Part shown: one piece after another, positions 31,767-54,101 of the stretch | How positions within the stretch are numbered: the first letter of the stretch is position 1 | Layout of the letters: every line of letters begins with the position of its first letter | NCBI RefSeq assembly: GCF_046105845.1 | Contig: NZ_CP151004.1 | Length of the DNA stretch: 64,000 nt | Source of the DNA: Escherichia coli | Lineage (GTDB): Bacteria > Pseudomonadota > Gammaproteobacteria > Enterobacterales > Enterobacteriaceae | Strand: one strand, 5' to 3' | The notes under the pieces: model-generated | The model's database searches: none | Told to the model about the DNA's origin: nothing | What the model saw: the letters and a program-made list of their open reading frames with translations, nothing else | Program-made: the position numbers and the translations under genes

Positions 31767-32311
31767 ATCTCCCAAGCCGGATGCTTCTGAACTGTACCCC
31801 AAATGTTGGACATAATCTGACATCTGAAGGTGCAGTTTATGAAACATTCATTTGAAGTAAAACTTGCCGCTGTAAATCATTACCTGGCTGGTCATGCAGG
31901 CATCATTTCTACGGCAAAACTCTTTCAACTTTCTCACACCAGCCTCTCACACTGGATTAATCTTTTTCTTCTTCACGGTCCTCGGGCACTGGATTGCAGA
32001 CACAAGCGTAGCTATTCTCCTGAAGATAAACTTTGCGTGGTTCTTTATGCTCTCGGGCATTCTGAGTCTCTACCCCGGGTAGCTGCCCGGTTTAACATTC
32101 CCAGCCACAACACGGTTAAAAACTGGATAAAAGGCTACCGCAAATCTGGTAATGAGGCCTTTATCAGGCGCAGGAAGGAGAAAAGCATGACCCGTTCTGA
32201 TGATACCCATGAAAACGAGGCAAACATGACGCCGGAAGAGATGAAGAATGAGCTGCGTTATCTTCGCGCAGAAAATGCATATCTGAAAGCCATGCAGGAG
32301 CATCTCCTGGA

Positions 32312-33221
<910 letters not shown>

Positions 33222-43960: not shown

Positions 43961-44416
43961 TTAGTACTGATGAGCGGTCGCGTTGTTACCAAAGCCAACC
44001 TGAGTGACGTTAACGCTGGAGTTAGATGCAGTCTGGTCAACAGCAGCACCGTTACCGCCACCGAACTGTTTAACAGTCATAGTAGAATCTTTACCATTCC
44101 ACTGATCAAGAGTAGCGCTGTTACCGAAGCCACGCTGAGTCAGATCGATTGAGCTGTCATCAGAACCTTGGCCAACATCTGCGCCGTTACCGCCGCCGTG
44201 CTGGGTAATGGTCAGATCAGAGTTACGGGCGTCAGCTTGCAGAGCAAGAGCAGAGTTACCGCCACCGTACTGGTAAATGTTCAGCTCTGAATTTGGGCCG
44301 CTATTATTACCGCCACCACCGTGGTTACCGCCGCCGCCGTACTGAGGAACAACACCTGCCAGAGCGCTACCAGAGAATACGATTGCTGCAATTGCTGCTA
44401 CTTTTAAAAGTTTCAT
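43961..44416 (-). CDS. csgA: Major curlin subunit CsgA
   Basis: 151-aa ORF with five Q/N-rich curlin repeats (SxxxQxGxGNxAxxxQ). Confidence 0.95.
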   Translation of the reverse strand: MKLLKVAAIAAIVFSGSALAGVVPQYGGGGNHGGGGNNSGPNSELNIYQYGGGNSALALQADARNSDLTITQHGGGNGADVGQGSDDSSIDLTQRGFGNSATLDQWNGKDSTMTVKQFGGGNGAAVDQTASNSSVNVTQVGFGNNATAHQY

Positions 44417-44456: not shown

Positions 44457-44912
44457 TTAACGTTGTGTCACGCGAATTGCCATTTGCGACTGTCTCTGCA
44501 CTACAATTGCCGTTTTTTGAGTACCATACTGTGTAATATTTGCTTTATTACCAGAACCTTTCTGGATAATCATCGCAGTATTACCATAAGCACCTTGCGA
44601 AATACTGGCATCGTTGGCACTGCCCGCCTGATCAATATATGCAAGGTTATAATCTCCTGTCTGGTCAATCTTTGCCCGATTGCTACTACCTTCTTGCGCA
44701 ACAACCGCCAAAAGTTTTGAGCCTCCCTGCCGTACCTGAGCACTATTATTAGTCCCAGCTTGACCAATTATGGCTGCCTGATTAAATGAAGACTTACTCA
44801 ATTCATTTACCGCGAAGTTATATTCTGAATTAGCTAAATCATAACCTGCTGCGGCTGCAATCCCAGGCGCACCCAGTATTGTTAACATCATAAATAACAA
44901 TTTGTTTTTCAT
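44457..44912 (-). CDS. csgB: Minor curlin / nucleator CsgB
   Basis: Track ORF 44457-44939; known start MKNKLLFMMLTILGAPGIAAA (151 aa). Confidence 0.92.
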   Translation of the reverse strand: MKNKLLFMMLTILGAPGIAAAAGYDLANSEYNFAVNELSKSSFNQAAIIGQAGTNNSAQVRQGGSKLLAVVAQEGSSNRAKIDQTGDYNLAYIDQAGSANDASISQGAYGNTAMIIQKGSGNKANITQYGTQKTAIVVQRQSQMAIRVTQR

Positions 44913-45666
44913 GTTGTCACCCTGGACCTGGTCGTACATTTAAGAAATTAAATCATTTCAACTTGGTTGTTAACGCAACCTGTATTTTGTTAACGCTGCG
45001 TTACGATGGAAAGTATGTCTGCGGAAATATTTTTAATAACTCACCCGCGCGTTGTATTTTTCTTTTTTTGTTCATACCAAAGTATTAAAACCCACGTAAA
45101 TACGCTGTTATCTACGCAAAAAAATATTTTGTTTTCTTTTAAATCTCCGTTTTCCGCAATCAAAAATCACCAGACAGCCATTCTTCTTGCCCGTCGCTGA
45201 TTGCTGCGATATGTCTTGCGCACAAGCCGTGACAAACCTCGTCTTTTTGCAGTAAAAAATTGTCCACGGAGGTGTGAAGAAAAAACAAGAACGTTTTACA
45301 TGACGAAAGGACTACACCGAAATATTTTTTATATGCATTATTAGTAAGTTAGCACCATTTGTATGATTTTTTAAAATTGTGCAATAAAAACCAAATGTAC
45401 AACTTTTCTATCATTTCTAAACTTAATAAAACCTTAAGATTAACATTTTAATATAACGAGTTACATTTAGTTACATGTTTAACACTTGATTTAAGATTTG
45501 TAATGGCTAGATTGAAATCAGATGTAATCCATTAGTTTTATATTTTACCCATTTAGGGCTGATTTATTACTACACACAGCAGTGCAACATCTGTCAGTAC
45601 TTCTGGTGCTTCTATTTTAGAGGCAGCTGTCAGGTGTGCGATCAATAAAAAAAGCGGGGTTTCATC
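44913..45666. promoter_or_regulatory. csgBAC / csgDEFG divergent intergenic control region
   Basis: 754-bp AT-rich divergent region between csgB and csgD; known from the literature to carry sigma-S promoters, multiple transcription-factor sites and the long csgD 5' UTR targeted by sRNAs. Confidence 0.6.
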
Positions 45667-46317
<651 letters not shown>

Positions 46318-51211: not shown

Positions 51212-51299
51212 GGTGAGGTGTCCGAGTGGCTGAAGGAGCACGCCTGGAAAGTGTGTATACGGCAACGTATCGGGGGTTCGAATCCCCCCCTCACCGCCA
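51212..51299 (+). tRNA. serX: tRNA-Ser (anticodon GGA), 88 nt with long variable arm
   Basis: GGTGAGGTGTCCGAGTGGCTGAAGGAGCACGCCTGGAAAGTGTGTATACGGCAACGTATCGGGGGTTCGAATCCCCCCCTCACCGCCA: acceptor stem pairs, anticodon loop CT-GGA-AA, T-loop GGTTCGAATCC, 3' CCA encoded. Confidence 0.92.
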
Positions 51300-51925
51300 T
51301 CTTTAAAGAAGAGCTCGTACGAAGGTACGGGCTTTTTTTTCGTATATTGCACACACCGGGGGATGAGAAGCCCCGACCGGGGTTCGACAACTGGCGACAG
51401 CCAGTTGGACAGACCGTGAACGCAGTGAGCGGGCTGCCCGCAGGGCGAGCGAAGCGAGTCAATCCCCCCTCACCGCCATCTTTAAAGAAGAGCTCGTACG
51501 AAGGTACGGGCTTTTTTTTCGTATATTGCACACACCGGGGGATGAGAAGCCCCGACCGGGGTTCGACAACTGGCGACAGCCAGTTGGACAGACCGTGAAC
51601 GCAGTGAGCGGGCTGCCCGCAGGGCGAGCGAAGCGAGTCAATCCCCCCTCACCGCCATCTTTAAAGAAGAGCTCGTACGAAGGTACGGGCTTTTTTTTCG
51701 TATATTGCACACACCGGGGGATGAGAAGCCCCGACCGGGGTTCGACAACTGGCGACAGCCAGTTGGACAGACCGTGAACGCAGTGAGCGGGCTGCCCGCA
51801 GGGCGAGCGAAGCGAGTCAATCCCCCCCTCACCGCCATCTTTAAAGAAGAGCTCGTACGAAAGTACGGGCTTCTTTTTCGTATATTGCACACACCGGGGG
51901 GATGAGAAGCCCCGATCGGGGTACT
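51281..51925. repeat. Tandem direct repeats, 179-180 bp unit, about 3.5 copies, each beginning with a copy of the serX 3' end and terminator hairpin
   Basis: Units start at 51301, 51480, 51659 and 51839 (CTTTAAAGAAGAGCTCGTACGAAGGTACGGGCTTTTTTTTCG...); copies near-identical; last copy degenerate (GAAAG loop, CTTCTTTTT); each unit ends with AATCCCCCCTCACCGCCATC resembling the tRNA T-arm/acceptor 3' half. Confidence 0.9.
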
Positions 51926-51928
51926 TAG

Positions 51929-52615
51929 TTAATGCAACGGTTCACCCTTTGTCGCCGCGGCTAATGGGCGAATTTTGTCACGGGTATCCCAGACCGGAGG
52001 GATTTCATCCAATTTAGTGACAGAAGCTCGTACAAAAGGCACCCGTGCAATAGTCATAATCGTATTCAACCAACGGTCACGAATAATGCGATCTGCCCTT
52101 TCATGACTCGGATCATCCAGCTCAATAACACAGACTATTTTGTTGTTCTTCTTTGAAATCAGAACATAATCCATTGCCATTCCATTATAAATTGCAAAGA
52201 AACGCTTTCTTTCTTCTTCGCTAAACTCGGGTTGTTCTGGAAAGTTGATCAAGCGCCCCAGAGAGACCTGGCAATGGATATGACAATAATGTCCAAACCA
52301 TTTCTCCAGATTATCAAAATAGATTTTTTCACAACGCGTAATTAACCACTCTTTTCCTTCCAATAAAATACCTTCGGCAACCATTCCCTGGAACAACTCA
52401 TCTCGTTCTTGCCAACGAGAGTCACGATAGGTTTTCTGCGGTGTATAGCTCCTTGTCGACGCCTTAGCCGCAGGGGAAGTTGCAGAGGAAGGGACTGGTT
52501 GCGATCTAGTGATGATTACCGATGAGGCAACTTTTCGGAGTGTCAATTTTCTGGCAACAGCAAAACCGGCGACAAATGCAATTGTCAAACAAGTTACAAA
52601 AACCATAAAGCTCAT
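51929..52615 (-). CDS. Hypothetical membrane-anchored protein (228 aa), function unknown
   Basis: ATG at 52613-52615 with AGGTGA RBS 9 nt upstream; N-terminal TM helix MSFMVFVTCLTIAFVAGFAVA, Ser/Pro-rich linker, C-terminal soluble domain with HYCHIHC and IELDDPSHERADRIIRDR; occupies the position of ycdU in K-12 (from memory) but identity not verified. Confidence 0.6.
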   Translation of the reverse strand: MSFMVFVTCLTIAFVAGFAVARKLTLRKVASSVIITRSQPVPSSATSPAAKASTRSYTPQKTYRDSRWQERDELFQGMVAEGILLEGKEWLITRCEKIYFDNLEKWFGHYCHIHCQVSLGRLINFPEQPEFSEEERKRFFAIYNGMAMDYVLISKKNNKIVCVIELDDPSHERADRIIRDRWLNTIMTIARVPFVRASVTKLDEIPPVWDTRDKIRPLAAATKGEPLH

Positions 52616-53127
52616 AATTAATCTTCACCTATCCATGTTGATTATATTTCATTACTAACGCTACTCGCTGTAGCGAGTTACATGCCAACAATTCAACGAA
52701 CTATATATAGTTAGTATCATGTTTTGATTATTACAACCATCCCTATTTTACCATTGCGGCTTGCCGTCCACAAAAAATAACAACACACAATATTAGCTGA
52801 AGAATTAATTAAGATTAACCTTATATTTTTAATATTATCCCTAAAAAATAAAATCAGGAGAATATATTCGGTGTTAATCAGTCAGTCAAATTATGGCCCA
52901 TTGCTGATTAAACCTCATACGCAAAATTGGCACCAGACCTCCTGTACAGGTTGAATGGCTGGAAAAAGATAGGCAAAAAACTCTCCGCGCTGGCGGCATT
53001 ACATTGGTCGGGTGCTATGACGAAAAATGCCTGGTAAAAGCATCTAAACCAGAATTCATTTCAGCTTATCAACACGCTCAAAGTCGCCCCCCAGAACGTT
53101 AACCTGAAGTGAAAGTCTTTGCTGTTA

Positions 53128-53159
53128 ATGAAATAAAACAAAGCCCGGTTCGCCCGGGC
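53128..53159 (-). terminator. Rho-independent terminator of phoH
   Basis: Minus-strand hairpin GCCCGG-GCGAA-CCGGGC followed by TTTGTTTTATTT, 20 bp after the phoH stop. Confidence 0.5.
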
Positions 53160-53177
53160 TCTGTACCGATAATACAC

Positions 53178-54101
53178 TTAACTGTATGCATGTAGCGTAC
53201 GTTGGCAAAGTGCCGAACGTACGCAATCCTCTTTACCGAATCGGACGATCCCGACCATTTCATCTTCTTCGAAACGTTCCAGCGCGTCACTTAATCCGGA
53301 TCGCACGCCGCGAGGCAAATCGCATTGCGTGATATCACCGTTGACGATAACCGTCACGTTCTCCCCGAGGCGGGTTAAAAACATTTTCATTTGCGCGGCA
53401 GTCACATTCTGCGCCTCGTCAAGAATGACGACTGCATTTTCAAAGGTACGTCCACGCATATAGGCGAACGGCGCAATTTCCACCTTCCCTATTTCCGGTC
53501 GCAGGCAGTACTGCATAAAGGAAGCCCCTAAGCGCCGGACCAGCACGTCGTAGACCGGGCGAAAATAGGGAGCAAACTTTTCTGCGATATCACCAGGTAA
53601 GAAGCCAAGATCTTCATCGGCTTGCAGAACTGGACGGGTGACGATAATCCTGTCGACATCCTTATGTATCAGGGCCTCTGCCGCTTTTGCTGCGCTGATC
53701 CAGGTTTTTCCGCACCCGGCTTCGCCCGTGGCGAATATCAGCTGCTTACTCTCAATAGCCTTCAGATAGTGCAATTGCGCTTCATTTCGCGCGAGGATGG
53801 GCGAGGTATCGCGACTGTCGCGGGCCATACCAATGGCTTCTACGCCGCTCATCTGCACAAGCGAGGTGACCGATTCTTCTTCACGCTGCTTATGGCTGCG
53901 CGAATCCCGTCTCAGCACACGTTTTGCCTCGCGACGAGCTTTGATCACTGCTTTTTGTCTTCCCATGGAGAGCACCTTGAGTTGTTTGTATTCATCACAC
54001 GCGCCGTTGGCAGCGCGATTATGCGCACGAACATCAGAGGGTTGGCTTCCTTGTAAGCCATAGTTTGCTTTTGGATAAAATGCCGAAAAACGGCTACGCA
54101 C
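53178..54101 (-). CDS. phoH: Phosphate starvation-inducible ATPase PhoH; N-terminal extent uncertain
   Basis: Longest in-frame ORF is 307 codons from GTG 54101 (first ATG at 53966, MGRQKAVIKARREAKR..., giving 262 aa); Walker A GEAGCGKT and PhoH core conserved; see finding on a possible 5' frameshift. Confidence 0.85.
   Translation of the reverse strand: MRSRFSAFYPKANYGLQGSQPSDVRAHNRAANGACDEYKQLKVLSMGRQKAVIKARREAKRVLRRDSRSHKQREEESVTSLVQMSGVEAIGMARDSRDTSPILARNEAQLHYLKAIESKQLIFATGEAGCGKTWISAAKAAEALIHKDVDRIIVTRPVLQADEDLGFLPGDIAEKFAPYFRPVYDVLVRRLGASFMQYCLRPEIGKVEIAPFAYMRGRTFENAVVILDEAQNVTAAQMKMFLTRLGENVTVIVNGDITQCDLPRGVRSGLSDALERFEEDEMVGIVRFGKEDCVRSALCQRTLHAYS

Follow-up and report, generated by a model that had tools for sequence, protein, structure and literature searches.

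The region between csgB and csgD, at positions 44913–45666 of the window (as we call the whole 64,000-nucleotide stretch of Escherichia coli DNA analysed here), is with very little doubt the canonical divergent control region of the curli genes, and its sequence predicts multi-input regulation like that of the reference strain. Such a region is already known, and in the strain studied it is a standard one. The regulation is predicted to be reference-like since no located site is altered and the seven differences from E. coli K-12 fall on poorly conserved positions. Moreover, as the sequence is the same as in K-12, the mechanism published for K-12 and Salmonella should be transferable to this strain.

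The region is flanked by the first genes of two divergent operons.

44457–44912, minus strand: csgB coding sequence, 151 aa, first gene of csgBAC (open reading frame, 99.3% identical to the annotated csgB)
45667–46317, plus strand: csgD coding sequence, 216 aa, first gene of csgDEFG (open reading frame)

The csgB start codon, an ATG on the reverse strand, occupies 44910–44912, and the csgD ATG begins at 45667 on the plus strand. By both start codons the gap is exactly 754 bp, as given in the preliminary description; the K-12 gap has the same length, and two papers report 754 bp as standard. The identity of the region as the csgB-csgD divergent control region for curli, proposed there too, is supported by the gene context and the sequence match to K-12. 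The gene order in the window, according to the transferred annotation, is rpmF, rne, the flg genes, mdoGH, csgCAB/csgDEFG, serX, phoH, efeUOB and putA. All seven csg genes of the divergent csgBAC and csgDEFG are intact and equal in length to those of K-12. CsgB has one amino-acid difference from K-12, and CsgD has two, S19P and S110A, while csgD differs from that of strain BEC1-S17-ESBL-09 by a single base (99.8% nucleotide identity). Relative to K-12, csgA (43961–44416) has diverged more than any other csg gene, with changes in 31 of its 456 bases and in 3 amino acids; csgB has only 3 changed bases, and the control region has 7 in 754 bp.

The gap is indeed AT-rich: its GC content is 34.4%, compared with 50.3% for the window as a whole, only 1.2% of 754-bp windows have a lower value, and a core with 23% GC lies at 45311–45518, immediately 5' of the csgD promoter. 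It had also been described as one of the largest intergenic regions, and ranking with the annotation transferred from the closest collinear E. coli genome places it second among about 65 inter-gene gaps. The largest (57879–59068, 1190 bp), which is unannotated, belongs to about 2.1 kb of AT-rich DNA between efeU and putP (57879–60559) that is extra relative to K-12, has the lowest GC content of the window and contains a 447-aa ORF (59069–60412) with no Pfam domain above the threshold. An IS3-family element with an IS1397-like transposase is situated between lpxL and mdtG (32046–33187); it is also present in BEC1-S17-ESBL-09 and is absent from most genomes compared.

Upstream of csgD the following elements were located, with the csgD transcription start at 45519 numbered +1.

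45373–45407 (−146 to −112), plus strand: MlrA palindrome AAAATTGTGCA-N12-TGTACAACTTTT, identical to K-12, 5' of the OmpR site
45460–45479, plus strand: predicted OmpR activating site GTTACATTTAGTTACATGTT, a direct repeat centred at −49.5, identical to K-12
45486–45513, plus strand: csgD core promoter, consisting of −35 TTGATT (45486–45491), a 16-bp spacer and −10 TAGATT (45508–45513), fixed by the transcription start, conservation 0.9–1.0

The palindrome follows the definition of the MlrA site reportedly given by Ogasawara in 2010. The −10 box follows the palindrome at 111 bp (65 of 70 species) and the OmpR site at 45 bp (61 of 63); an equivalent OmpR site has been reported for Salmonella. A scan with the sigma-70 consensus yielded two sites in the region, compared with a mean of 3.8 in shuffled sequences, and missed the csgD promoter, which fits a weak, activator-dependent promoter.

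On the csgB side, three conserved elements are seen.

44913–44932, minus strand: start-proximal part of the csgB leader (ribosome-binding region, function assigned by position), conservation 0.8–1.0 in 75 species
44967–44976 and 44987–44996, minus strand: two conserved copies of TTGTTAACGC, read from the sequence, with starts 20 bp apart
45038–45048, minus strand: CsgD box, reverse complement CGGGTGAGTTA, conserved with at most two mismatches in almost all species

We infer that the TTGTTAACGC repeats (44967–44996) mark the csgB core promoter. The CsgD box fits the consensus CGGGKGAGNKA, reportedly due to Brombacher in 2003. All published landmarks that could be located are present, and the motifs are at the published distances. 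The published footprints extend from −308 to −192 for RcdA, from −201 to +28 for H-NS and from −31 to +53 for RcsB.

Alignment to K-12, which the preliminary description had called for, is gapless with K-12 MG1655 and contains seven substitutions and zero indels, all 5' of the csgD transcription start; thus the region is a standard one.

45069 (−450): window T, K-12 A
45158 (−361): window A, K-12 T
45167 (−352): window T, K-12 G
45178 (−341): window C, K-12 T
45277 (−242): window A, K-12 G
45352 (−167): window G, K-12 T
45439 (−80): window A, K-12 G

The sequence from −79 to the csgD ATG is identical to K-12, and four of the seven differences are inside the central spacer described below. At 45069 and 45167 the window's base is found in all six other Escherichia lineages, which suggests that K-12 has the derived state at these two positions; 45352 leans in the same direction, but is mixed. 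The divergence of the gap from K-12 is 0.93%, compared with 6.3% at the four-fold degenerate sites of csgDEFG, and the 7 observed differences stand against about 48 expected (P about 3e-13). So low a rate relative to the four-fold sites indicates that the control region is under purifying selection.

The main alternative is that at least one of the seven differences shifts the curli level or its temperature dependence, the strain thus carrying a functionally altered allele. Single-base changes in the csgB-csgD region are indeed known to switch phenotypes: in Salmonella, SNPs at −47, −80 and −189 change the curli output. The window, too, differs from K-12 at −80, within the dense stretch that separates the MlrA site from the OmpR site; another difference is at −167. 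However, every located motif is free of these seven differences, and all seven are in species-variable columns, the window's base being shared by only 9–56% of 75 Enterobacteriaceae species; at −80 (45439) the window has A, the family-majority base. Further, the exact window allele is carried by 25 complete E. coli genomes from varied hosts. An altered allele is therefore unlikely, and the reading as a reference-like control region is retained, although the difference at −80 or at −167 might conceivably have a slight effect on the expression level, as single bases in this region matter in Salmonella.

The region as such is found in 5371 of 5426 complete E. coli genomes (99%). Its length is slightly variable within the species, as the A-run at 45112–45119 has a common uncompensated A7/A6/A5 polymorphism producing gaps of 754, 753 and 752 bp. 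Hence the statement that any strain-specific indel here would change the biofilm phenotype is too strong in view of this natural variation by 1–2 bp, although other strains do carry damaging indels. In a sample of other E. coli alleles, that of E. coli WCHEC4533 has lost half of the OmpR site through a 10-bp deletion (equivalent to window positions 45459–45468), and in three genomes the control region is interrupted by IS1; both kinds of change are expected to damage it. The window has neither the 10-bp deletion in the OmpR site nor an IS1 insertion. At a larger scale, the best match of the 25 kb at 32000–56999 to any complete RefSeq E. coli genome is only about 98.4–98.7%, so that either this strain's lineage has few representatives in the collection or the locus has a mosaic origin.

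The leader of csgD contains several overlapping elements.

45519–45666, plus strand: csgD 5' untranslated leader, 148 nt (published length), 100% identical to K-12
45520–45611, plus strand: match to Rfam RF02752, ES056 "sRNA", 119.7 bits compared with a gathering score of 43
45583–45640, plus strand: SL1 leader hairpin, the minimum-energy fold reproducing the published −83 to −28
45656–45682, plus strand: SL2 leader hairpin enclosing the ribosome-binding site and AUG, the fold matching the published −10 to +16
45569–45606, plus strand: small-RNA landing zone (predicted pairing), the most conserved leader block
45569–45583 (−98 to −84), plus strand: RprA pairing, 15-bp contiguous helix
45571–45586 (−96 to −81), plus strand: McaS pairing, 16-bp contiguous helix
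45588–45606 (−79 to −61), plus strand: OmrB pairing, 19-bp contiguous helix
45593–45606, plus strand: OmrA pairing, 14-bp contiguous helix

The transcription start at 45519 was placed by the published 148-nt leader length, and the Rfam match begins one base past it; together with the identity to K-12, this bears out the long csgD 5' UTR mentioned in the preliminary description. The minimum-energy hairpin SL1 is supported by covariation: in 50 species, compensatory changes are seen in seven of seven apical and five of seven basal pairs (12 of 14 in the two main helices), 94.5% of the cells are paired, compared with 38–50% when the partners are slid, and none of 500 shuffles reaches the observed score. 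The pairs of SL2 are nearly invariant across species and provide no covariation evidence either way. Pairing with small RNAs was assessed by a search for contiguous helices, unrestricted RNA duplex folding having been dropped because of unrealistically long duplexes. The helices formed with the K-12 RprA, McaS, OmrA and OmrB are equalled by at most 1% of shuffled small RNAs, and the sites coincide with the published ones.

The Rfam match raises another explanation, namely, that the length of the gap is due to a hidden, unannotated gene, either for a small protein or for an independent small RNA; mechanical ORFs of 41–64 aa within the gap point the same way. The match to ES056 is full-length and covers 92 nt of the leader, from +2 to +93. 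Its start and strand are those of the csgD mRNA, and its 3' end is within SL1, where no terminator is seen; hence the family probably describes a fragment of the csgD leader and not a gene. This family was built on an RNA-seq transcript, and terminator prediction by its authors gave none for the novel transcripts that they described. As for a protein, no ORF is kept in position or frame across species, in the spacer or elsewhere in the gap, and the variable sites show no codon periodicity (47, 39 and 33 by position modulo 3). A hidden gene of either kind is thus very improbable. One more Rfam match in the window, to Ysr251, a Yersinia antisense RNA family (53183–53376, plus strand, 194 bits), overlaps the annotated phoH region.

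A scan with one genome per species yielded 80 loci from about 20 genera, with both csgB and csgD found at 75 of them; in 73 of these 75 the gap is 742–802 bp long. The idea that this AT-rich DNA is a recent foreign acquisition kept silent by H-NS, suggested by its low GC content (34% with a 23% core) and by the published binding of H-NS to the csgB-csgD region, is scarcely credible, as the distribution in E. coli is not patchy, the genomic context does not vary, the two flanking genes and nearly the same length recur in these 73 species of about 20 genera, and the internal modules are conserved.

The family-wide alignment of the control region may be divided into four parts: the csgB-side module, the centre, the csgD upstream module and the leader. 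The csgB-side module (44913–45090) is conserved across the family. The csgD upstream module (45336–45518) is conserved and essentially free of indels, its length being 181–184 bp across species. The centre behaves differently.

45091–45335: central spacer of about 245 bp with low sequence conservation and conserved length, AA/TT phased at 10.5 bp
45229–45248: conserved islet in the spacer, GTGACAAA ... CTTTTT, conservation up to 0.9, inside the published RcdA footprint

The mean identity of the spacer to the window across species is 37.5%, whereas its length is 241–256 bp in 73 species. In other Escherichia species it is 67–74% identical, which is about 0.7–0.95 of the four-fold-site divergence, and yet six other Escherichia lineages all have a spacer of exactly 245 bp, a 1-bp loss being offset by a 1-bp gain. 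Accordingly, the distance from the CsgD box to the MlrA site is 351–365 bp in 68 species, with a coefficient of variation of 0.9%, compared with 6.6% and 4.2% for the two leader-side distances. The 10.5-bp periodicity of AA/TT in the spacer has z = 5.3 in the window, and other Escherichia are phased too; it is significant in only 34% of species.

These observations make it possible, if somewhat less probable than not, that the central ~245 bp are not filler and form an intrinsically curved spacer constrained in length that couples both promoter modules as one unit. The spacer would set the distance between the modules, so that bound H-NS, IHF, RcdA, OmpR at low affinity and CsgD could act on both promoters. 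Curvature of the region, as well as the action of MlrA, OmpR and IHF on csgB too, has been remarked in the literature and fits this coupling; in the literature searched, we found no statement of such a coupling, nor of a length constraint on the spacer despite the drift of its sequence. Two stricter rules were considered and rejected. An exact length is contradicted by the A7/A6/A5 variation in E. coli and by two Kosakonia species with only 123 bp. A rule of helical phase is contradicted by the between-genera distances, which fill the range of 351–365 bp continuously, with no 10.5-bp steps. As a by-product of the comparative analysis, we thus have a testable hypothesis on physical coupling of both curli promoters, composed of a csgD upstream module that is rigid at 183 bp, a leader hairpin with covariation and a spacer conserved in length but not in sequence.

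For the region as a whole, the scheme carried over from published work on K-12 and Salmonella is as follows. RpoS-dependent transcription of csgD would need OmpR, MlrA and IHF, and H-NS, CpxR and RcsB would repress it. OmrA/B, McaS, RprA and other small RNAs would act post-transcriptionally on the csgD leader, either blocking translation or destabilising the leader. CsgD would then switch on csgBAC from the CsgD box.

With an intact, reference-like curli switch, any unusual biofilm behaviour of this strain would have to originate elsewhere, the candidates being an absent pgaABCD/dgcT block and trans factors outside the window; the genes rpoS, ompR, mlrA and those for c-di-GMP enzymes are outside it. 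At 51300–53177, between serX and phoH, the ~10.9-kb K-12 block pgaABCD-dgcT-IS3-ymdE-ycdU is absent, and a DUF2726 gene (51929–52615) is present in its place. In K-12 that block provides for PGA polysaccharide synthesis and a diguanylate cyclase, which makes its absence relevant to the biofilm phenotype. Nearby, at 51285–51922, there is a 179-bp tandem repeat (3.6 copies, 98% identity) whose start is within the 3' end of serX, a tRNA-Ser gene. A terminator-like hairpin is present in every unit, and K-12 has the same array.

Among known systems, the closest is the csgD-csgB region of E. coli K-12 MG1655 (NC_000913.3, 1103197–1103950), which shares with the window the length of 754 bp, the flanking genes and 99.1% identity, and has identical sequences of the 148-nt leader, the csgD promoter and the OmpR, MlrA and CsgD-box sites. 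That the gap is intact and nearly identical to that of the reference strain agrees with the earlier view that nothing novel was to be expected here. The corresponding region of Salmonella enterica (agfD-agfB) is more distant: it is 755–760 bp long and about 63% identical to the window overall, and its central spacer is 6 bp longer and unalignable in places. The effects of H-NS and RcsB have been reported to be opposite in E. coli and Salmonella. Still, the order of the modules in Salmonella is the same as in the window, and so are the distances of 111 bp from the MlrA site and 45 bp from the OmpR site to the −10 box.
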